Shown here: positions 43,169 to 53,728 of the stretch, piece by piece
Layout of the letters: the number at the start of each line of letters is the position of its first letter
Position numbering within the stretch: position 1 is the first letter of the stretch
Assembly (NCBI GenBank): GCA_002102825.1
Contig: DABJ01000027.1
Coordinates: 36,373-100,372 of the forward strand
Length of the DNA stretch: 64,000 nt
Direction of reading: 5' to 3'
From: Candidatus Gastranaerophilales bacterium HUM_12
GTDB taxonomy: Bacteria > Cyanobacteriota > Vampirovibrionia > Gastranaerophilales > Gastranaerophilaceae
The notes under the pieces: generated by a model
The model's database searches: none
Told to the model about the DNA's origin: nothing
The model's input: the letters and a program-made list of their open reading frames with translations, nothing else
Made by a program: the position numbers and the translations under genes

Positions 43169-43240
43169 TCCTCAGTAGCTCAATGGCGGAGCATTCGACT
43201 GTTAATCGAAGGGTTGCTGGTTCGAGTCCAGCCTGGGGAG
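43169..43240 (+). tRNA. tRNA-Asn (GUU), CCA not encoded
   Basis: Manual cloverleaf: acceptor TCCTCAG/CTGGGGA, anticodon stem TTCGA/TCGAA with loop CTGTTAA, and T arm GCTGG-TTCGAGT-CCAGC. Confidence 0.9.
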
Positions 43241-43284: not shown

Positions 43285-43427
43285 AATGCCTGTTTCTCTA
43301 ACTGAAAAGATTAAATCTTCAAACAAACTCAATTTTTCAATGTGCTTGTACGGAGAACCCGGTGTATTTTTTGAGTCATTTCAATTCTGGCGGGTAGTTA
43401 TATTATTGGGGAAAGTTGCCTTTGTGT

Positions 43428-43609
43428 GCGAGTTTGAGGCTAAAATGCAGATTATTAAAAGAAAAAAGGATAATTCCAAGGATAAGAAAAGGATAAATTG
43501 GATATTTTTTATATTACATTTCTTTAGACATGGGAAGAGGCAACAAACTCCAATAATACTAACAATTTCCCTAATTCCTTATGATTACATATTTATAAAA
43601 CTATCCTTC
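43428..43609 (+). repeat. ~182-nt direct repeat, copy A
   Basis: Aligns by hand with 45829-46009 with roughly 19 differences including a 1-nt indel. Begins with CGAGTTTGAGGCT. Confidence 0.85.
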
Positions 43610-43648
43610 TACTTATAATCAGTATAATTAATTTTACTAATCAAAACC

Positions 43649-45667
43649 CTACATTTCATTCAAATTTATTATAGAGGATTTTGGTTTTTCGACTTTTGGT
43701 TTTTCTATAGGATTAAATATTTCATATAAACACGAAGTAAAAGTTGTGTTTCCGTCAAATTTACATTCTTGAGTGATTGTATCAATATAAATTTTATCTT
43801 CGCCAGAAGAACCTATAATTTTCATTTCTTTATTTTCATTTGGATAGTTTTTAAGATTAAGCTTATTCATGTTTTGACCAACATATATAGGCATATCAGG
43901 ATTACCAAGCTCTTTTGTAAAATTCTTAGCATACGCAAATATCAAATCTTTAATTTTATTATTAATACTTTCTTTTATATAATCTTTTTTGAGTTCAATA
44001 TTATCTAACACCAATGCTGGTTTATTCTCAATTTCTGCAATATAACACATAGTATTACCAACAGGTTTATCATTAACTAAAACTTCCATTCCAGAAATCA
44101 TTTTATTTTTTATATAATTAGGTGCTATAGCTTGTCTCGTGCCTGTTCCTATTGCTGTGCAACAGGAAGCATCAATACCTAAAAATAATGAATGAGAAAC
44201 ATTATTCATATCAACTTGTTGTACAGTTAATTGTATATTGTTAGTATTCGGATTTTTCTGTAATAAAAGCATTTTTTGTTTAAGTTTTAAAATCCAGCTT
44301 TCAAAAGTTTTTCTTGCCATAGTTGCGTCAGGATTTTTATCAGGACTTTTCCAAAAAGAATTCTTTTTCATAAATTCACTAATAATATCAATCAATTCAG
44401 GCAATTCTTTAGCTGATATCCGTTGGTTATCTTTACAAAGTTTTAAAGCTTGATTATTAATATCTGAATAAAGACTATATAATGAATTTTGAGTATTTAA
44501 TTTATAACCTTTTATGCTTATTTCTTCAAATAATTTTGCTTTCTTATCTATTGAAAGAATTCCCAATATAGGAGATGTCAAAATTTCTTCTAAATTATTT
44601 ATTATATCATTTTGTTTATCTTCATCTGTTATATTTTTTTGTAATTTCGATTTTGGGTCAAATTTAGTCCATCTATTAAAATTTATCCCCGATTTTTCAA
44701 ATTGAACTTTTGTCGCTTTATTTTGAGGAAGTTCTAGTAAAACCTCTCTCACAGTCTTATTTGGACTTTGGTTAAGAATTGTGAGCAACTGATTATAAGG
44801 AGATTTAAAATCTTCCTTTGAAGTAAACATTTTTGATAAGTACTTATTATTTCTAAAATCCACTTGTTTGCAAACATTACCGTTTGAGTCAGTCCTTACA
44901 ATATCATTCAATATATTTTGTAATTCATTAATATTGTTTTTTTTATTATATTTATTTAATACTGACTCTAAAATATCATAAGAATTCTGCATAATATAAA
45001 AAAACTTAGCTAATTCAATTTTATAAGGATAATCTGTAATTGATTCTTTTACTAAATTTTTATTTTTATCTGTTAAATTATTTATATCTTTAATTAAATT
45101 GTCTTTATTATCAATTATATGAAACTGTTTTTTTAAGTTAGTGATTTGAGTTTGCCTGTTTTTATATTGCAAACTTTCTGTTGGATTTGTTAATTCCAAT
45201 AACTTTTGATACAAAGGGTGATTTGTACTTATATCGCCAATTGTATCTATATAACTTTCGACATTTTCAAACTTTTTGTCAAACGATGCGATAAAAGATT
45301 TTTTCCCAAGAATTTTTACTGTATTTAATACTTTTTTAGGCTTTTTAAAAATTAACTGTTCTATTTCGTCATTAGTAACTTTATGCGAGAATGATGACAA
45401 AAAATCACGCCTATTAAACCCTGCAAGCCTGATATCCATAAGAGTTTTAGCCTGTTCGACTCTATTTAATTTATCTCTTATAAAATTAATTGTATATTTT
45501 TTAGGATATCCCAATTCCAAAATCTTAAGAAATCTGTCTGTAGTTAAATTTGTACTTCCTAAATTACTGCCAAAATATATATTTGATTTATTTTGACGAT
45601 AAATGTTAGATTTATTTCGAATATTATTATGGGGAGTATATCCATAATAAAGGGGTGAAATATTCAT
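43649..45667 (-). CDS. large orphan protein (672 aa) with SNIYFGS N-terminal tag
   Basis: Long uninterrupted ORF, helical N-terminal two thirds. C-terminal region has LGIDASCCTAIGTGTRQ; no family recognised and no obvious RBS. Confidence 0.55.
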   Translation of the reverse strand: MNISPLYYGYTPHNNIRNKSNIYRQNKSNIYFGSNLGSTNLTTDRFLKILELGYPKKYTINFIRDKLNRVEQAKTLMDIRLAGFNRRDFLSSFSHKVTNDEIEQLIFKKPKKVLNTVKILGKKSFIASFDKKFENVESYIDTIGDISTNHPLYQKLLELTNPTESLQYKNRQTQITNLKKQFHIIDNKDNLIKDINNLTDKNKNLVKESITDYPYKIELAKFFYIMQNSYDILESVLNKYNKKNNINELQNILNDIVRTDSNGNVCKQVDFRNNKYLSKMFTSKEDFKSPYNQLLTILNQSPNKTVREVLLELPQNKATKVQFEKSGINFNRWTKFDPKSKLQKNITDEDKQNDIINNLEEILTSPILGILSIDKKAKLFEEISIKGYKLNTQNSLYSLYSDINNQALKLCKDNQRISAKELPELIDIISEFMKKNSFWKSPDKNPDATMARKTFESWILKLKQKMLLLQKNPNTNNIQLTVQQVDMNNVSHSLFLGIDASCCTAIGTGTRQAIAPNYIKNKMISGMEVLVNDKPVGNTMCYIAEIENKPALVLDNIELKKDYIKESINNKIKDLIFAYAKNFTKELGNPDMPIYVGQNMNKLNLKNYPNENKEMKIIGSSGEDKIYIDTITQECKFDGNTTFTSCLYEIFNPIEKPKVEKPKSSIINLNEM

Positions 45668-45828
45668 ATTAAAATTAAAACCGAAAAAAATAATTTTTGC
45701 TATTTTTTATTAAATGCGATTTATTTCTCCCTTTAAGAATTTTACAATTGTTGTGTGCCAAAAAATTTTTATTCAAAAATGTAATGGTTATTATCCATTT
45801 TTAACCTCTATAAACTTCAAAAAACAAT

Positions 45829-46009
45829 CGAGTTTGAGGCTGAAATGCAGAATATTAAAAGAAAAAAGGATAATTCCAAGGATAAGAAAAGGATAAATCG
45901 GATATTTTCTATATTACATTTTTTCAGACATGGAAGTGGCAACAATCCCCAATAATACTAACCTTTTCCCCAATAGCTTAACTTTACATATTTATAAATC
46001 TATCCTTCT
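45829..46009 (+). repeat. ~181-nt direct repeat, copy B
   Basis: See copy A. Confidence 0.85.
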
Positions 46010-46380
46010 CTTTATATGTACTGATTTTCTATTATTGTTTGGAATATCGGCTTTAGTTTTATATCAAAGTTTTTATCTTTATATGTGATTAGTACGTTTT
46101 AACATTTCTAACCAAAATAATTTTCCGGTAGTTTTCTTTAAAAAATGAACTTATTTGTCCTTGTTTAGGCCTAAAAACAAACTATTTCAAAAGAGAGCTA
46201 CGACAATTACTATTTGTTTTTAAAACAAAAATTTATGCCGAAGGGAAAACCAAGCTAACGAAGTTTAAAACGAACATTATGGCAAAATACAGGCATTAAT
46301 GTGGGAAATTACAATAAGCTTGAAATCTTAATCTAATTGAAATCTTTATCCTGTTACTATAACAAAATATTCGCTAAGAG

Positions 46381-46424
46381 GCCGCTGACGCGAGTTTGCA
46401 GGTATGTTCAAGTGTATTAGCATA
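46381..46424 (+). repeat. imperfect direct repeat, left copy (GCCGCTGACGCGAGTTTGCAGGTATGTTCA...)
   Basis: About 25 of the first 30 nt are identical to 53688-53717. Contains the GCGAGTTTGCAGG core variant. Confidence 0.7.
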
Positions 46425-46528
46425 ACTTTTTTTACAATTAGAACTCTAATTCTCTTAAAACTCGCGTGAACAGTGACAAAAAAGATTTTTATAATAAATA
46501 CTACACTAGAATCGGATATTTACATTGG

Positions 46529-47203
46529 CTACTTCATAAAATATACCATGCAAGGGCGGCCGCCGGTATCGTAATTTATTTGTTCTATAACTTCACCGTT
46601 TTTTGTTAAATAGTGCATGTATTTTCGAACCGTAACTTTTGAAATATCCAAAAATGCTGCAATTTGTTCTGATGTATGTCCGCTATTTGTATCTTCTCTT
46701 AAGTATTTACGGATTTTGTCTAATGTCTTTTCTTGAATACCTTTTGGAAGTTCAAAATTATTATTCCCCAAATGTTCGCTATTCATAATTTCATCAATTT
46801 TTTTCTGATCCAGAACGCAAACATTATTTTTTTGAACTCTACACTCAACGAATTTGTCCAGTGCTTGTTGAAATCGTTCTTGTACAAAAGGTTTGACAAG
46901 GTAATCAATGACCCCAAAGTTTAAAACCGTATCAAGGGTCTTTTTATCATTTGATGCCGTAACCATAATTATATCAGTATTAATTTCTTCCGTTCTGATT
47001 TTTTTTAGCAAAGATAAACCATCTAACACTGGCATATAAACATCAAGGATAGCCAAATCCACTTGATTTTCTGACAAATATTTGAACGCATCATTCCCGT
47101 TCCTGAAAGATTGAACAACATAAAAACGGGAATCTTGCTCAACATAATGAGTATTTATCATTGCAACCATAGGGTCATCTTCTACGATTAAAACCTTGTA
47201 CAT
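46529..47203 (-). CDS. response regulator, CitB/DcuR family
   Basis: Receiver domain (LIVEDDP, DLAILDVYMP, KPF) plus C-terminal HTH (ISKVTVRKYMHYL); colinear with DcuR. Confidence 0.9.
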   Translation of the reverse strand: MYKVLIVEDDPMVAMINTHYVEQDSRFYVVQSFRNGNDAFKYLSENQVDLAILDVYMPVLDGLSLLKKIRTEEINTDIIMVTASNDKKTLDTVLNFGVIDYLVKPFVQERFQQALDKFVECRVQKNNVCVLDQKKIDEIMNSEHLGNNNFELPKGIQEKTLDKIRKYLREDTNSGHTSEQIAAFLDISKVTVRKYMHYLTKNGEVIEQINYDTGGRPCMVYFMK

Positions 47204-47213
47204 TTATTACCTC

Positions 47214-48017
47214 TTATTCATAATATTTAGGTGCTAATTTCATTGTTTGGAAAAATTTCCAATCGTGAGCAGGAAAGACTTTTGCATCATATTTTTTAGC
47301 CAAACGTCTTACTTTTTCGATTGATTTTAAGAAACTTACACTATCATACATAAAACCGCTCATTTTTGCAGGTGGTCCAAAAATTTCTGATGTATAAACA
47401 CAATCTTGAGGAAGAATTATAGTTTGTCCTTCAAGATGAACAACAAGCCCTAAGAGATTTGGAGTATGACCGGCAAGACAAACTACTTCAACCCCTTTTG
47501 CAAGTTCAAAATCTTCATCAACCAAATGATATTGTTTTACGGGTGCTTCCAAATCTCCTTTTATATAACCGCCATGAGTTTCTCTATCAGGGTTCATGTG
47601 AACTTTTGCAAGTCCATATTTGTAATCTTCCCCAGGAACATAAACATCAGCGTGAGGGAATAAATTGATATTTCCTGCGTGGTCTAAGTGCATATGAGAA
47701 AGTACAACGGTTTTAATATCTTCCGGTTTAACACCGCAAAGTTTAAGTTGATTTTCCAATCTTTCTTCTTCTTTTTGATAAAGCGGATAAACTTCTTGCA
47801 TAGTTTTGGGCCAATAACCGTTCATGGCTTCAGGGTTTGAACCTGTGTCATATAAAATATAACCATCATCTGTTTCAATTAAATAAGCCATTACAGGCAG
47901 TTTAATCCATTCATTTTGAACATGCGGATTAGTGCGTGTTCCAAGTGTTGCACATGCAACAACGGTATTTTTATCGGTTTCTAAATACCCTGTATTTAGT
48001 GCATAAAGTTTCATCAT
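47214..48017 (-). CDS. metallo-beta-lactamase fold hydrolase, AiiA-like lactonase family
   Basis: SHMHLDHAGN (HxHxDH), later GHTPN, DxxY and terminal HD. Colinear from the N-terminal KLY..N.G to the C-terminus with AHL lactonase AiiA as I recall it. Confidence 0.7.
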   Translation of the reverse strand: MMKLYALNTGYLETDKNTVVACATLGTRTNPHVQNEWIKLPVMAYLIETDDGYILYDTGSNPEAMNGYWPKTMQEVYPLYQKEEERLENQLKLCGVKPEDIKTVVLSHMHLDHAGNINLFPHADVYVPGEDYKYGLAKVHMNPDRETHGGYIKGDLEAPVKQYHLVDEDFELAKGVEVVCLAGHTPNLLGLVVHLEGQTIILPQDCVYTSEIFGPPAKMSGFMYDSVSFLKSIEKVRRLAKKYDAKVFPAHDWKFFQTMKLAPKYYE

Positions 48018-49000
48018 TTCCCTTCTTTCTTAAATTTAACGGTGAATTTTGTTTCTATTTCCATTTCTGACGTAACTGAAATTTTACCGTTATAAGTCTC
48101 AATCAATGATTTAACAACAAAAAGTCCCGTTCCTCTAGAATTACTTTTTGTTGAAAATCCGTCTTTAAAAATTTTCTTCAAATTAGATTTTTTTATTCCG
48201 TTGCCATTATCGCTTACGACAATTTTTATTTCTTTTGGTGTTGATAAAATAGATACATATATTTTTTTGTTGGAAACATCTGTTGAATTTAGTGAATCCA
48301 TCGCATTTTCGATTAAATTTCCAAGCACTGTTATAAAAACATCTGACGGAATTCTTGTATCGTTTTCTTCCAGTGAACTTGATGAATCCAATGCAAAATG
48401 GATGCCGAGTTCTGATGCTCTAGCAAATTTTCCAATCAAAAGAGCAGCAATAGATGGAATTTTAATTTGTTTAATAATGGTACTTATTATCTCTTTTTGT
48501 ACCATACTGACATTCATAATGTATTCAACTGCTTCATCGTATTTTTTCATTTGGATTAAGCCCAAAATTACATGCAATTTATTCACAAAATCATGGTTAT
48601 TAGCTCTCATTGATTCGACAAGATGTTTAACCCCGGTCAAATTTTCTGCAAGTTGTACGACCTCAGTTCTGTTTCTAAAAATAGCAAATGCTCCAACGAT
48701 TTCACCATTATCATAAATTGGCATTCTATCAGAAATTACGTAATCATTTTTTAATGATTTCATCTGCACATTGAATTCTTTTTTGCCTGTCGTTAAGAGT
48801 TCACCTAATCTTGATGCAGGATAAATCTCATTCAAATCTTTTCCGATAGGTTCACTTTCTGTTATATGCAGCATTGGAATTGCTGATTTGTTTATAAATA
48901 TAACTTTTTTGTTTTTATCAATCGCTAAGATGCCTTCCTCTAGTGCCATAAGGATATCTTCACGCAATTTAAACATTTCAAGTAATTTATTTTCATCCAT
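48014..49000 (-). CDS. soluble CitA/DcuS-family sensor histidine kinase (PAS + kinase core, no TM or periplasmic domain)
   Basis: PAS directly at the N-terminus, H box NNHDFVNKLHVILGLIQ, N box GNLIENAMDS, G1 DNGNGI, G2 GTGLFVV. No hydrophobic 20-mer anywhere. Confidence 0.85.
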   Translation of the reverse strand: MDENKLLEMFKLREDILMALEEGILAIDKNKKVIFINKSAIPMLHITESEPIGKDLNEIYPASRLGELLTTGKKEFNVQMKSLKNDYVISDRMPIYDNGEIVGAFAIFRNRTEVVQLAENLTGVKHLVESMRANNHDFVNKLHVILGLIQMKKYDEAVEYIMNVSMVQKEIISTIIKQIKIPSIAALLIGKFARASELGIHFALDSSSSLEENDTRIPSDVFITVLGNLIENAMDSLNSTDVSNKKIYVSILSTPKEIKIVVSDNGNGIKKSNLKKIFKDGFSTKSNSRGTGLFVVKSLIETYNGKISVTSEMEIETKFTVKFKKEGK

Positions 49001-49034
49001 AATTTTATTTTACCTTGAAATTACAACTTTGCTA

Positions 49035-50549
49035 TTAAATATTAGGAAATTTATACGCATCTTCAATATCAACAGGCATTTCCTTGTACTCACAAGTGTT
49101 TATAGCCTTATCAAGATAATCGTACAATTCCTGTTTAAATTTCGGATGTGCACAATTTTCGATAATTGTTTTGGCTCTTTCTATCGGGTCTAAACCTCTC
49201 AAATCTGCAACCCCTTGTTCTGTAATAAGTGCGTGGATTTCATGGATTGTATGGTCAACGTGACTAACAAGTGGGACAATACAAGAGATTTCTCCATTTT
49301 TTGCAGTAGATTTTGTGATAAAAATTGATAGTCCAGCATTTTCGCAATAATCGCCAGAACCGCCGACACCATTCATCAAACGACAACCGTTAATGTATGA
49401 AGAATTAGTGTTACCATAAATATCTGCCTCAATAACTGTGTTAATCGCAATTATACCAAGTCTTCTGATAACTTCGGGGTGGTTACTGATTTCTTGCGGT
49501 CTTAGTACAATTTTATCTTTATATTTTTCAAAGTTTTTAAAGAACTCATCAATCTTATCCCAAGAGATTGTCAAGGACGTACCCGATGCACATTTAACTT
49601 TTCCTGCCTCAATAAGGTCGAAAATTGAATTTTGCAAAACTTCTGAATATACTGTTAAATCTTCAAAATCAGAATCTTTCAAACATTCTAAAACTGCATT
49701 TGAAACACTGCCGACACCTGCCTGAATGGGAGGAAGCGGATTACACAATCTTTTATGTTCAACTTCATTTTTCAAAAAGTTAACCAAATTTTTAGCCATA
49801 GCATCAAATTCCGCATCAGATGGTACAACTTTCCTTCCATTATCAGGAATTGTGCTGTGAACAACAGCAACAACTTTATCAAAATCACATTTTATATAAG
49901 GTGTTCCAATTCTATCGTCAACTTTTGTAATTGGAATAGGTTTTGTATATGGAGGATTTTCAGGAGAATAAACATCATGAACCCCTTCTAAAGACGCTGG
50001 AACATAAGTGTTTACTTCAATTATAATTTTGTCCGCACATTCTGCATATATGTTAGAAGTACCAACAGAAGTTGTCGGAATAATATTTCCGTTTTCATCA
50101 ATCGCAGTTGCTTCAATTATTGCAACATCAACATGGTTTAAGAAATTTCTTTTTACCCAGACAGGCATCAAACCAAGCGGAACATCATGATAGCCGACTT
50201 TCCCGTCATTAATCGCATTTCTCAAATCTTTATTGGTTTGGTAAGGAATACGTTTTTTTAAAGCTCCTTTTCTTGCAAGTTCACCATCAAACTCATCTCC
50301 GAGAGAAGCTCCTGAATAAACTGTTAAATCAAGCTTTTCACCGTTATCTGCACGTTTGGCAAGCTCTCCTGCAATAACTTTAGGATAACCTGCAATCGTA
50401 AAACCACTAACACCAAGTGTCATATTAGGGTTTATAAACTTTGCAGCCTCAGCCGGTTCCATAACTTTAGTTAAATATCTTTTATCTCTAATCCTTTTTT
50501 CAAATTCTTTGTCCACAGTCTTTACCTCACTTACTCTTTCATTTACCAA
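49035..50549 (-). CDS. cat1: acetyl-CoA hydrolase/transferase family enzyme, Cat1-type succinyl-CoA:acetate CoA-transferase
   Basis: GVSGFTIAGYPK, RPQEISNHPEVIRRLG, MNGVGGSGDY and VSHVDHT.HE...TEQGVADLRGL are colinear with Clostridium kluyveri Cat1 as I recall it. Confidence 0.8.
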   Translation of the reverse strand: MVNERVSEVKTVDKEFEKRIRDKRYLTKVMEPAEAAKFINPNMTLGVSGFTIAGYPKVIAGELAKRADNGEKLDLTVYSGASLGDEFDGELARKGALKKRIPYQTNKDLRNAINDGKVGYHDVPLGLMPVWVKRNFLNHVDVAIIEATAIDENGNIIPTTSVGTSNIYAECADKIIIEVNTYVPASLEGVHDVYSPENPPYTKPIPITKVDDRIGTPYIKCDFDKVVAVVHSTIPDNGRKVVPSDAEFDAMAKNLVNFLKNEVEHKRLCNPLPPIQAGVGSVSNAVLECLKDSDFEDLTVYSEVLQNSIFDLIEAGKVKCASGTSLTISWDKIDEFFKNFEKYKDKIVLRPQEISNHPEVIRRLGIIAINTVIEADIYGNTNSSYINGCRLMNGVGGSGDYCENAGLSIFITKSTAKNGEISCIVPLVSHVDHTIHEIHALITEQGVADLRGLDPIERAKTIIENCAHPKFKQELYDYLDKAINTCEYKEMPVDIEDAYKFPNI

Positions 50550-50727
50550 TAATTTATCATATTGATAAAATTTGTATGTACTAACGAAATTAAAAAAAGA
50601 GTTTGGAAAGTAAAGAAAGTTTTAAATAACGCAAAAAAATTTTTATACTTACAAAAGAATGTACAAAATTGAATTACAAAACTAACATATTGCTATAGGT
50701 TGAAATTGTAAGAAAGGAAATATAAAA

Positions 50728-52113
50728 ATGGAAAACGAAATTAGTGCAGAAGAATTGATTAATTCGTTAGTTGAAAAAGCTCATAAAGCTCAACAAGAAT
50801 TTGAATCATTTTCTCAAGAACAAACAGATGCTATTGTTAAAGAAATTGGTAAAGTCGTTTATGATAGAGCTGAAGAATTAGCCAGAATGACAGTTGATGA
50901 AACTAAAATGGGTGTTTATGAAGACAAGGTTGCAAAATGCCACGGTAAATCAAAATGTATTTGGAACAGTTTGAAAGGCAAAAAATCAGTAGGGATTATT
51001 GAAGAAAATAAAGAAACAGGAATTATTAAAGTTGCAAAAGCAAAAGGTGTAGTTGGTGCAGTAACCCCTGTAACAAATCCTGTTGTAACTCCAATGTGTA
51101 ATATTATGTTTGCTATTAAAGGTCAAAACGCAATTATTATTGCTCCGCACCCAAGAGCAGAACATGTAAACAAATACGTTGTAGATCTGTTTAGAGAAAT
51201 TTTGAAAAAACACAACGCTCCTGTTGATTTAATTCAAACAATCGAAAAATCATCAATTGATGCTACAAATGAATTAATGAAAAAAGTTGATGTAGTTGTA
51301 GCAACAGGCGGTGGCGGTATGGTTAAAGCTGCTTATTCATCAGGTCACCCTGCATTAGGTGTTGGTCCTGGTAACGTTCAAGTTATTATGGATAGAGGAA
51401 TTGACTACGAAGATGCCGTTAAGAAAATTATCATCGGCAGAACTTTTGATAATGGTATCATTTGTTCAGGTGAACAAGCCGTATTCATTCCAAAAGAAGA
51501 TTTTAATAAAGTTCTTGACTTGTTTAGAAAAAACGGCGTATTTGTTGTTGAAGATGAAGCATCAATTAAGAAATTTGCTGATACAATCTTCCCTGAAAAC
51601 GGTCCAATCAATAGAAAAATTGTTGGTCAATCTGTTCAAACAATTGCAAAACTTGCTGATGTTGAAGTTCCGGAAGGTACAAGAATGATTTTGATTAAGG
51701 CAAGGGCAATCGGTAAAGGCAACGGCGAACCTTTATGTCGTGAAAAAATGTGTCCTGTAATGATTACTGCTCCTTACGATACATTTGAAGATGCTATTAA
51801 ACTTGCTCAATCAGATTTGGAATACGAAGGAAAAGGTCATACAGCATCAATTCATTCAAATGATATGGAACATGTTCGTTATGCAGGTGAAAATTTGACG
51901 GTAAGTCGTTTAATTGTTAACCAATCCTCATCAACAGGTGCAGGCGGCAGTTTGTATAATGGCTTTGCTCCAACTACAACATTAGGTTGTGGATCTTGGG
52001 GTAACAACAGTATTTCAGAAAACTTGAATTACACTCACTTAATTAACGTTTCTCAAATCGGACTTTATAATAAGGATAAAAAAGTTCCGACAGATGAAGA
52101 AATTTGGGCTTAA
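50728..52113 (+). CDS. sucD: CoA-acylating succinate-semialdehyde dehydrogenase (SucD-type)
   Basis: MGVYEDKVAKCH, TNPVVTPMCN, FDNGIICSGEQ (catalytic Cys) and TTTLGCGSWGNNSISENL are colinear with C. kluyveri SucD. Confidence 0.8.
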   Translation: MENEISAEELINSLVEKAHKAQQEFESFSQEQTDAIVKEIGKVVYDRAEELARMTVDETKMGVYEDKVAKCHGKSKCIWNSLKGKKSVGIIEENKETGIIKVAKAKGVVGAVTPVTNPVVTPMCNIMFAIKGQNAIIIAPHPRAEHVNKYVVDLFREILKKHNAPVDLIQTIEKSSIDATNELMKKVDVVVATGGGGMVKAAYSSGHPALGVGPGNVQVIMDRGIDYEDAVKKIIIGRTFDNGIICSGEQAVFIPKEDFNKVLDLFRKNGVFVVEDEASIKKFADTIFPENGPINRKIVGQSVQTIAKLADVEVPEGTRMILIKARAIGKGNGEPLCREKMCPVMITAPYDTFEDAIKLAQSDLEYEGKGHTASIHSNDMEHVRYAGENLTVSRLIVNQSSSTGAGGSLYNGFAPTTTLGCGSWGNNSISENLNYTHLINVSQIGLYNKDKKVPTDEEIWA

Positions 52114-52185
52114 ATTTGTTGTTATAATAAATTCCGGATTGCATAATGTAGTCCGGAATTCTCCTAAAAGAAAGGATTTTTAATC

Positions 52186-53301
52186 ATGAAACAGTTAATA
52201 TTAAAACCGGAATTGCATAAATTCCAAACTTGCAAAGAATTTGCAAAAGAATTTGAATTGGGGGAAGATGATTTAATTCTTACAAATGAATATATTTTTA
52301 ATCCATATTTCAAAGAATTAAATTTGCCTGTAAAAACAATTTTCCAAGAAAAATTCGGTGCAGGTGAACCAACAGATATTATGGTTGATGCAATTATTAA
52401 TGAAGCTGCAAAACATACTTTCAAAAGAATAATTGCAATCGGCGGTGGTACAATCATTGATATAGCAAAAGTTTTGGCAGTAACAAACGGAGAATCTGTC
52501 GATAAATTATACGACAAAAAAAATGAATTAAAGAAACATTATGAACTAATTATTATCCCTACAACTTGTGGTACAGGCAGTGAAGTTACAAATATTTCAA
52601 TCATCAACAGAACAAGATTGGGTGTAAAAATGGGATTGACTTCGCCTGAAATGTTTGCAGAAATGGCAGTTCTAATTCCTGAACTTTTGAGATCATTACC
52701 GTTTAAAGTTTTTGCAACAAGTTCAATTGACGCTTTGGTACATTCTGTTGAATCAAGTTTATCTCCAAAAGCAACCGATTATTCCAAATTATTTGGTTAT
52801 AAAGCTATTGAAATGATTATCACAAGCTATCAAAGACTTGTTAAAGAAGGTAAAGAAATTTTGCCTGATTTGATGGATACATTCTTGACGGCAAGCAACT
52901 TTGCTGGTATTGCGTTTGAAACAGCAGGTTGTGCAGCGGTTCACGCATTGAGTTATCCATTGGGTGCAAAATATCACGTTCCACATGGAGAAAGCAATTA
53001 TGCCGTATTTACTGGTGTTTTGAAAAATTATATGGAAATTAAACAAGATGGCGAAATCGCAACAATGAATGAATTTTTAGCAAACCTTCTTCATTGCGAT
53101 GTAAAAGTAGTTTATGAAGAACTAGAAAACTTGTTGAATTCTGTATTGCAAAAGAAACCTTTGCACGAATACGGTGTAACTGAAAAGGATGCAGAAGATT
53201 TCGCTGAAAGCGTAATTAAAACTCAAGGGCGTTTGATGGCAAATAATTTTGTTGTATTAGATTATGATAGAGTATTAAAAATTTATAAGGAGTTGCTATG
53301 A
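52186..53301 (+). CDS. 4hbD: 4-hydroxybutyrate dehydrogenase (iron-containing alcohol dehydrogenase family)
   Basis: 371 aa; IAIGGGTIIDIAKV, HSVES and HALSYPLGAKYHVPHGESN metal-site blocks. N-terminus colinear with C. kluyveri 4HbD; lies directly downstream of sucD. Confidence 0.75.
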   Translation: MKQLILKPELHKFQTCKEFAKEFELGEDDLILTNEYIFNPYFKELNLPVKTIFQEKFGAGEPTDIMVDAIINEAAKHTFKRIIAIGGGTIIDIAKVLAVTNGESVDKLYDKKNELKKHYELIIIPTTCGTGSEVTNISIINRTRLGVKMGLTSPEMFAEMAVLIPELLRSLPFKVFATSSIDALVHSVESSLSPKATDYSKLFGYKAIEMIITSYQRLVKEGKEILPDLMDTFLTASNFAGIAFETAGCAAVHALSYPLGAKYHVPHGESNYAVFTGVLKNYMEIKQDGEIATMNEFLANLLHCDVKVVYEELENLLNSVLQKKPLHEYGVTEKDAEDFAESVIKTQGRLMANNFVVLDYDRVLKIYKELL

Positions 53302-53606
53302 GCTTATTAGAAGCCGGTATGATGGCAAGCTTTGGATTAAGTTGGCCGATTGCAGCATACAAAACTTATAAATGTAAATGCGTACATGGAAAAAGCCTTA
53401 CTTTTTCATATTTAATTCTATTTGGATATATTTGCGGAATTTTAAATAAACTTTTGCATAATAATGACTATGTAATTTGGATATATTACGCAAATGCAGC
53501 GTTTCTGTTGCTAGATATGTTTTTGTATTACAGATATAAAAATAATCCGGCTCCCAAAACTGCCGAACTTCCGATAGAAATAAACGAAGAAGTGGAAATT
53601 GATTAA
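53298..53606 (+). CDS. small 3-TM membrane protein, PQ-loop/SemiSWEET-like
   Basis: 102 aa with three hydrophobic helices and SWPIAAYKTYKCK at the position of the PQ motif. ATGA overlap with the 4hbD stop. Confidence 0.4.
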   Translation: MSLLEAGMMASFGLSWPIAAYKTYKCKCVHGKSLTFSYLILFGYICGILNKLLHNNDYVIWIYYANAAFLLLDMFLYYRYKNNPAPKTAELPIEINEEVEID

Positions 53607-53611
53607 CAAAA

Positions 53612-53640
53612 AACAGCATACTTAAAGTATGCTGTTTTTA
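53612..53640 (+). terminator. intrinsic terminator of the sucD-4hbD operon
   Basis: AACAGCATAC-TTAAA-GTATGCTGTT followed by TTTT. Confidence 0.85.
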
Positions 53641-53687
53641 TTGTATTAAATTTTTATTTTGTTGATATAGCAAAATATTCACAGGAA

Positions 53688-53728
53688 GCCACTGACACGA
53701 ATTTGCAGGTGTGCTTCAGTATCACATA
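53688..53728 (+). repeat. imperfect direct repeat, right copy (GCCACTGACACGAATTTGCAGGTGTGCTTCA...)
   Basis: Pairs with 46381-46424. Confidence 0.7.

Follow-up and report, generated by a model that had tools for sequence, protein, structure and literature searches.

Clostridium kluyveri and Porphyromonas gingivalis convert succinate to 4-hydroxybutyrate (4HB), from which they proceed to crotonyl-CoA. The blcABC genes are a precedent for the route from gamma-butyrolactone (GBL) through gamma-hydroxybutyrate (GHB) to succinate semialdehyde (SSA), which a second dehydrogenase oxidizes further (PMC5924552). A clostridial version of the lactonase operon considered below was previously predicted as the XanR regulon, with the hydrolase left uncommented (PMC6615313). 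In the present study, we analyzed a module of seven genes, including cat1, sucD, 4hbD, and a lactonase gene, in the metagenome-assembled genome (MAG) of an uncultured gut member of the Melainabacteria (Gastranaerophilales), which are relatives of the cyanobacteria. The module is located between positions 46,381 and 53,728 of the window, the 64,000-nucleotide stretch of DNA that was analyzed (C28:36373-100372); all positions are those of the window unless another contig or locus is named. On balance, we read the seven genes as an accessory catabolic island for GBL and 4HB, which a subset of gut Gastranaerophilales acquired horizontally and still exchanges. The enzyme families in the module are known, and it is their arrangement that is new; the module does not represent a new kind of system. 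Searches of the literature returned no paper that describes the module or connects Melainabacteria with 4HB.

The assembly comprises 56 contigs (1.86 Mb, 32% GC) and is 97.6% complete. Of the public records that carry these genes, the closest are MAGs from the gut labeled Candidatus Melainabacteria or Gastranaerophilales. The first-pass annotation of this DNA placed exactly seven genes between two imperfect direct repeats, in divergent operons with cat1, a kinase, a lactonase, and a regulator on the minus strand and sucD, 4hbD, and a small membrane protein on the plus strand. The open reading frames (ORFs) and profile annotation agree with this layout and its coordinates (Table 1). Since the start of the lactonase gene overlaps the stop codon of the kinase gene by 4 nt and the regulator gene follows after a gap of 10 nt, the lactonase is embedded in the regulatory operon. 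The gene for the 102-aa membrane protein similarly overlaps the stop codon of 4hbD. The divergent promoter region contains a 37-nt block that is retained even in the most distant copy of the module (L122; G and L numbers are labels of the compared genomes and loci), the module proteins of which are 64-92% identical. This block may be the binding site of the regulator. A palindrome, TTTATCATATTGATAAA (50553-50575), is located immediately upstream of cat1; it is conserved across the genus but not in L122.

Table 1. Coordinates of the module genes and associated features in the window.
Feature	Position	Strand	Evidence
tRNA-Asn, anchor of the variable region holding the module	43169..43240	+	ARAGORN, Rfam
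Element E, full copy (left repeat), ~140 nt	46340..46480	+	Promoter-like stretch, then ~100 nt with 10-bp inverted repeat ACGCGAGTTT ... AAACTCGCGT
Response regulator, DcuR/CitB (DpiA-like HTH) type	46529..47203	-	Pfam Response_reg and HTH_64; NCBIfam DcuR 150 bits, under cut-off
Lactonase, metallo-beta-lactamase fold, predicted gamma-butyrolactonase	47214..48017	-	Lactamase_B; NCBIfam and PDB matches; metal ligands
Histidine kinase, DcuS/CitA family, cytoplasmic PAS and kinase core only	48014..49000	-	DcuS/MalK model; Pfam
cat1, Cat1-type succinyl-CoA:acetate CoA-transferase	49035..50549	-	NCBIfam ScpC; PDB
Conserved block, divergent promoter region, candidate regulator binding site	50632..50668	.	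TACAAAA twice, 12 nt apart
sucD, CoA-acylating succinate-semialdehyde dehydrogenase	50728..52113	+	PDB 8cei
4hbD, iron-dependent 4-hydroxybutyrate dehydrogenase	52186..53301	+	PDB 30sm
102-aa three-helix membrane protein, SemiSWEET-like, candidate lactone/4HB carrier	53298..53606	+	Weak PQ-loop; AF2; Foldseek
Terminator hairpin of the sucD-4hbD operon	53609..53639	+	
Element E, truncated copy (right repeat)	53648..53722	+	Promoter-like part and first ~35 nt; similarity lost after ~53722

Their profile and structure-database matches show that Cat1, SucD, and 4HbD are true orthologues of characterized enzymes. Cat1 scored 638 bits against the NCBIfam ScpC model (cut-off 500) and 655 bits against the YgfH subfamily, and matched PDB entries 2g39, 2nvv, and AarC 4eu3 (AarC, 412 bits). 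It is encoded by the sole gene of the AcetylCoA_hydro family in the genome. SucD matched an acetylating succinate-semialdehyde dehydrogenase (PDB 8cei) with 592 bits versus 324 bits for AdhE. Models of the non-acylating enzyme (SSADH) reached just 25-47 bits, and this aldehyde dehydrogenase is of the CoA-acylating type. 4HbD matched PDB 30sm, Cvir-Hbd2, with 453 bits, and Cvir-Hbd2 is biochemically restricted to C4 substrates (PMC13495136). The ScpC, 8cei, Cvir-Hbd2, and AarC matches thus bear out the enzyme identities originally proposed. A sulfoacetaldehyde pathway was considered because the SauS and SarD models were among the top NCBIfam matches; it was rejected because these scores were far under the cut-offs and because SucD and 4HbD structures in the PDB matched much better.

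The enzymes that would connect this route to other metabolism were not found. There was no HpaB_N match, the signature of AbfD, anywhere in the genome, including the window, and no second AcetylCoA_hydro gene that could encode AbfT/Cat2; the reported absence of abfD and abfT from the window therefore extends to the whole genome. Searches of the genome did not identify a methylmalonyl-CoA mutase, a succinyl-CoA synthetase, or a fumarate reductase. The lone hit for the fumarate reductase flavoprotein domain was NadB (L-aspartate oxidase), which scored over the TIGR00551 cut-off. Since all of these enzymes are absent, the module forms a closed link between succinate and 4HB. Based on this gene content, succinyl-CoA, SSA, and 4HB appear to join nothing else in the cell, and the module would tie external succinate to external 4HB or its lactone. 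The formation of propionate from succinyl-CoA was ruled out because the genome lacks methylmalonyl-CoA mutase.

The lactonase is the gene that informs on the direction of flux. Its profile scores were 206 bits for AhlS and 124 bits for AttM (AttM cut-off 390), both under cut-off. In the PDB, it matched the broad-range lactonases AaL/GcL (171-180 bits) and, over residues 3-266, BlcC/AttM 2r2d (143 bits). The metal site is intact, with HxHxDH, H184, D205, Y208, and H251 invariant. Members of the family share 65-80% identity across Bacillota, Fusobacteriota, Synergistota, Spirochaetota, Bacteroidota, and others. At 69 loci outside Melainabacteria, all ORFs up to 6 kb away from the lactonase were clustered, and the recurrent clusters were annotated. 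At 36 of these loci, the lactonase was accompanied by at least one 4HB gene in the same orientation and in operon-like order. The neighbors were an AbfT-like CoA-transferase (22 loci), an AbfD-like HpaB-family protein (20), a sigma-54 PAS regulator (19), a 4HbD-like dehydrogenase (14), and GABA transaminase (6, sometimes with 4hbD). SucD-like genes were found near the lactonase at four loci (Prolixibacteraceae, two Methylococcaceae, and Crenothrix). The sets of genes beside the lactonase were abfD with an abfT-like gene (20-22 loci), 4hbD, and sucD with 4hbD. No variant of the module lacks the lactonase. From its relatives and neighbors, we predict that it acts as a gamma-butyrolactonase. At several Bacillota lactonase-abfD-abfT operons (L026, L027, L044, L048, L062, L088, and L128), LuxC-like and LuxE-like genes recur together with an AMP-ligase gene; this set appears to be an uncharacterized acid-reducing cassette tied to 4HB metabolism.

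These observations suggest the following scheme. GBL or free 4HB would enter the cell, possibly via the SemiSWEET-like protein, and the lactonase would open the lactone ring to give 4HB. 4HbD would then oxidize 4HB to SSA, and SucD would convert SSA to succinyl-CoA. Cat1 may transfer the CoA of succinyl-CoA to acetate, yielding succinate, which would be excreted, and acetyl-CoA as a source of ATP. The soluble DcuS-type kinase and the DcuR-type regulator would turn on both divergent operons upon the appearance of an intracellular intermediate. We read the module as leading from GBL or 4HB through succinyl-CoA to succinate because the lactonase subfamily adjoins 4HB genes at the 36 loci described above. 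Lactone or 4HB is also favored as the input because the hydrolysis of the lactone is effectively irreversible at neutral pH, because no enzyme that forms 4HB-CoA is present to yield the lactone as a by-product, and because the lactonase has been retained in all variants of the module. From such evidence, we infer which way the flux runs, what the lactonase acts on, what the kinase binds, and how the small membrane protein contributes; a function in GBL and 4HB catabolism is plausible. The route assigned to cat1, sucD, and 4hbD in the first-pass annotation thus stands as a set of enzymes. However, its direction from succinate to 4HB, as in C. kluyveri, now appears to be less likely because the lactonase, left unexplained there, points to lactone or 4HB as the input.

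The horizontal spread of the module is well supported. In the genus, 76 genomes were searched for the lactonase and for the repeats, and SucD was sought in 24 genomes of the genus and 16 of other genera in the same order. The lactonase was present in 9 of the 76 genomes. Orthologues of SucD with 98-100% identity occurred in 3 of the 24 genomes and in none of the 16 from other genera, which only had AdhE with ~40% identity. Module DNA was 98% identical to that of G044, G041, G015, and L018, whereas the adjoining flanks were 70-86% identical. A second variant (G022 and G003) was ~90% identical. The module was found in at least four contexts, beside three different tRNA genes: tRNA-Asn in the window, G044, L017, and L018; tRNA-Asp in G041, with a 3' fragment of tRNA-Asp in G003; and tRNA-Met in G022. 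In G044, L017, and L018, tRNA-Asn was located 36-92 nt from the block that begins at window position 46017. The complete seven-gene unit, with 64-92% protein identity, was also found on three contigs of two more distant Melainabacteria-like lineages, all in different contexts. On one locus (L127, 10636-15524), the module adjoins genes for Mor, Mu-transposase_C (TniA-like), TniB, and a 547-aa tyrosine recombinase; homologues of TniA and TniB with 45-47% identity are present on contig C1 of the window's genome. Outside these lineages, the closest cat1-sucD-4hbD genes (67-79% identity) were on contigs of 45% and 57% GC, with a LysR regulator and neither lactonase nor kinase. In a maximum-likelihood tree, the lactonases of Melainabacteria formed one tight clade nested among Bacillota sequences. 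The patchy distribution, changing contexts, much higher similarity of the module than of its flanks, and position of the lactonase clade support the earlier proposal of horizontal acquisition, and nothing that was named in advance as refuting it was observed. We concluded that exchange within the genus is recent.

Two public MAG contigs, L022 (CAVAPR010000007.1) and L024 (CAVHEM010000095.1), carry the Melainabacteria module with 95-98% protein identity. The former is labeled as a Methanomethylophilaceae archaeon and the latter as a Bacteroidaceae bacterium. These labels are probably binning or labeling errors and not cross-domain transfer; the genome collection assigns L022 to the genus of the window.

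The repeats that flank the module, hereafter element E, are present at 46381 and 53688 as described previously. They extend further than originally reported (46340-46413 and 53648-53720, ~75 nt, ~80% identity) and include the upstream promoter-like stretch. A degenerate 26-mer covering both repeats had exactly 2 matches in the window (0 expected from 100 shuffles) and exactly 2 in the 1.86-Mb genome. Among the genomes of the genus, 17 distinct full copies occurred in 9 of 76, and the 10-bp inverted repeat was conserved. The right-position copy, which is truncated in the window, is full-length in L018, L065, G044, and G041. The repeats had been taken as the bounds of the transferred unit. This part of the proposal was not sustained because G022 carries the module without element E, with the block common to the window ending at 53642, G041 has one copy only, and G043 has element E and the right flank of the window with no module. 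We rejected G043 as an empty site because other cargo, an AAA_14/DUF4143 gene, occupies the place of the module between the same flanks. On the right, the 98%-identical block ends inside element E; on the left, its limit varies (46017, 46280, or 46495). In G003 and G041, a hipBA pair adjoins element E (L016 12216-13768 and L020 2556-4108) on opposite sides of the module. We conclude that element E is a junction sequence of a tRNA-proximal variable region in which cargo is exchanged, and not a transposon end. Its copies are most likely the breakpoints of homologous recombination, and it may mark an integrase-independent hotspot of cassette exchange by tRNA genes.

Searches for Phage_integrase and Pfam scans of the flanking ORFs revealed no integrase, transposase, or recombinase on the 117-kb contig C28. 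The repeats are not the 3' ends of tRNA genes and show just a 12-nt resemblance to a tRNA T arm. A possible role for element E as a small RNA is so far unsupported: there was no Rfam match at gathering or permissive thresholds, the folding z-scores were between -2.2 and 0, and in a hand-built structure with 87% of cells paired, the covariation was equaled by 58-108 of 500 shuffles.

Other repeats were noted near the tRNA genes. A second pair of direct repeats (43429-43618 and 45829-46018, ~190 nt, ~90% identity) surrounds a lone 672-aa orphan gene (43649-45667) just downstream of tRNA-Asn; these repeats begin with CGAGTTTGAGGC, a sequence similar to the core of element E. The entire 43297-46016 segment is missing from G044 and L018. 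At 30842-31130, a tRNA-Asp gene is followed after ~170 nt by a duplicate of its own 3' end (cgtcgttcccgccatt) and a second terminator-like hairpin, a layout resembling what an insertion at this tRNA would leave behind. A 20-mer located at 31220, CTTTGTGTGCGAGTTTGAGG, is found again at 43419.

The kinase matches the DcuS/MalK model (529 positions) from position 207 to 524 with 292 bits. The protein has half the full length, and its score accordingly falls short of the 520-bit cut-off. Pfam identified PAS, SPOB_a, and HATPase_c domains, and the H-box reads HDFVNKL. Neither an N-terminal hydrophobic segment nor the membrane helices and periplasmic sensor were found in the alignment to the model or in the sequence. 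The protein forms its own 50% cluster among 1.84 billion representatives, and its next relatives are no more than 47% identical and mostly 530-545 aa. Based on these features, we regard it as a truncated, soluble member of the DcuS family. No close paralogue of the kinase or response regulator was found in the genome. The AF2 model of the 102-aa protein (pLDDT 75) has helices at residues 3-25, 34-54, and 60-80. In a Foldseek search of the PDB, the top eight matches were SemiSWEETs (TM 0.5-0.8, E 0.08 or worse), followed by the mitochondrial pyruvate carrier; such weak E-values are expected because the protein is so short. The PQ-loop score was 19.7 bits against a cut-off of 22, and the motif position reads SWP and not PQ. 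The family is strongly conserved. We regard the protein as a candidate carrier of lactone or 4HB. A stand-alone paralogue (67% identical, C14:11617-11928) is located outside any metabolic operon, and at L125 a 101-aa relative lies between cat1 and sucD.

Several points count against the reading of the module as an acquired island for GBL and 4HB catabolism. Each of the three redox and CoA steps can run either way, and C. kluyveri uses Cat1, SucD, and 4HbD to go from succinate to 4HB. Kinases of the DcuS family classically sense C4-dicarboxylates, which would suit an input of succinate. The lactonase of abfT/abfD operons may merely salvage lactone formed from 4HB-CoA; because of this possible role, its linkage to 4HB genes does not prove that the lactone is a growth substrate. 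The oxidation of 4HB yields two NAD(P)H, which a fermenter must dispose of, and neither a succinate exporter nor a lactone importer was identified with confidence. Furthermore, the compositional check that had been suggested gave no deviating signal: the tetranucleotide distance is at the 35th percentile of genome windows, the GC profile and GC3 are native, and the module has 33.2% GC against a mean of 32.2%. Since the composition is indistinguishable from that of the genome, entry into the lineage was not recent or the donor had a like composition. A rival reading has the opposite direction, a reductive electron sink. Imported succinate would be activated by Cat1 at the cost of acetyl-CoA and reduced to 4HB by SucD and 4HbD with two NAD(P)H, the small membrane protein would export 4HB, and the lactonase would just reopen lactone that forms spontaneously. 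We consider this to be rather unlikely, but a serious alternative. The identities of the three enzymes that C. kluyveri uses in this way were confirmed here, the genome lacks fumarate reductase, so that exogenous gut succinate would be the substrate, and the closest operons outside Melainabacteria have a LysR regulator with cat1-sucD-4hbD and no lactonase. However, the periplasmic domain with which DcuS binds dicarboxylates is missing from the kinase, and the module has no dicarboxylate transporter. Nor would a salvage lactonase have any lactone to recover, since no enzyme that forms 4HB-CoA is present; nevertheless, the lactonase gene is translationally coupled in the regulatory operon and kept in each copy of the module. 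The sink would also cost one acetyl-CoA, equal to ethanol formation, plus an external substrate. A third proposal separates the lactonase and two-component system from the adjoining 4HB enzymes as a quorum-quenching or signal unit for acyl-homoserine lactones (AHLs). Public records call the family "N-acyl homoserine lactonase", and its top NCBIfam and PDB matches are AHL lactonases, but every score is far under the family cut-offs. Since the subfamily is also linked with 4HB genes in many phyla and is co-transcribed with cat1 in an arrangement kept in all module variants, we regard this proposal as very unlikely.

Acquisition and exchange were weighed against two other histories. Direct repeats bracket the genes, and in G044 and L018 two full copies lie 7.3 kb apart around the module, as would be expected if the module were a discrete mobile element of exactly seven genes with the repeats at its termini (att sites or a target duplication). 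The core GCGAGTTTGCAGG also resembles CGAGTTTGAGG, which opens the 190-nt repeats by the neighboring 672-aa gene, and the T arm of tRNA-Asp. Nevertheless, such an element is improbable: the module occurs without the repeat (G022) or with one copy (G041), the repeat occurs with other cargo (G043) and is also linked to hipBA (G003 and G041), the left limit of the 98% block varies, and the 117-kb contig has no integrase or transposase. Vertical inheritance with many independent losses would account for the fully native composition and for the seven-gene unit in several Melainabacteria-like lineages. It is hardly compatible with module DNA 98% identical between flanks of 70-86% identity, with three different tRNA loci, or with the distribution in 9 of 76 genomes of the genus and 0 of 16 from other genera of the order; therefore, we assign it a very low probability. 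The acquired and still exchanged island clearly exemplifies how gene islands have recently been exchanged between species of Melainabacteria.

Both GHB and GBL, its lactone, are neuroactive compounds, and GHB is at once an endogenous metabolite and a drug. Little has been mapped of the pathways by which gut microbes consume or produce these compounds. The island provides a concrete, testable set of genes in a still uncultured gut lineage. It also suggests what a highly conserved subfamily of lactonases, now mis-annotated as quorum-quenching, may do, and the membrane-free DcuS-type kinase is a simple system for examining what the cytoplasmic PAS domain of the family senses alone. As a tentative combination, which we judge to be possible without leaning toward it, gut Melainabacteria may scavenge neuroactive GBL and GHB by means of a self-contained, ATP-yielding island; the "AHL lactonase" subfamily may be the dedicated gamma-butyrolactonase of anaerobic 4HB metabolism; and a sensor-stripped DcuS-type kinase may have been re-purposed for an intracellular product, possibly together with a SemiSWEET-like carrier.

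As in tRNA-linked genomic islands, the module is adjacent to tRNA genes, patchy among relatives, and variable in context; however, it lacks its own integrase on contig C28, att repeats derived from tRNA 3' ends, and a deviant composition. The kinase core, H-box, cytoplasmic PAS, SpoOB-type helical domain, and DpiA-like HTH regulator are those of DcuS-DcuR and CitA-CitB, whereas the two membrane helices and the ligand-binding periplasmic PAS of DcuS/CitA are missing. With SemiSWEET/PQ-loop carriers, the small protein shares a length of ~100 aa, three membrane helices, and, according to the AF2 model and weak E-values, the SemiSWEET fold. The clostridial XanR (sigma-54) regulon abfD-nifU-hyp-ach-golB places the same lactonase subfamily beside 4HB-CoA enzymes (PMC6615313), but its route uses a CoA-transferase and a dehydratase to reach crotonyl-CoA under a sigma-54 activator, with no SucD or Cat1. 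The cat1-sucD-4hbD genes of C. kluyveri and P. gingivalis encode orthologous Cat1, SucD, and Fe-type 4HbD. In contrast to these species, the present genome has no cat2/abfT or abfD, the module adds a lactonase and a two-component system, its operons are divergent and not collinear, and its flux probably runs in the opposite direction.

We read the module as an anaerobic, CoA-dependent analogue of Agrobacterium tumefaciens blcABC (attKLM) with BlcR. Both have a lactonase of the metallo-beta-lactamase fold; that of the module is related to BlcC over its full length (2r2d, 143 bits) with an intact metal site, and its activity on GBL is predicted. Both also pair the lactonase with a GHB dehydrogenase, which in the module is 4HbD. 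The module has a two-component system in place of the IclR-type repressor BlcR, it adds a SemiSWEET-like protein, and its host is an uncultured gut Melainabacterium. In place of BlcA, an NAD-dependent, non-acylating SSA dehydrogenase, the aldehyde step of the module uses the CoA-acylating SucD followed by a CoA-transferase. The route would thus end in succinyl-CoA and succinate and conserve the energy of the thioester, which suits an anaerobe.

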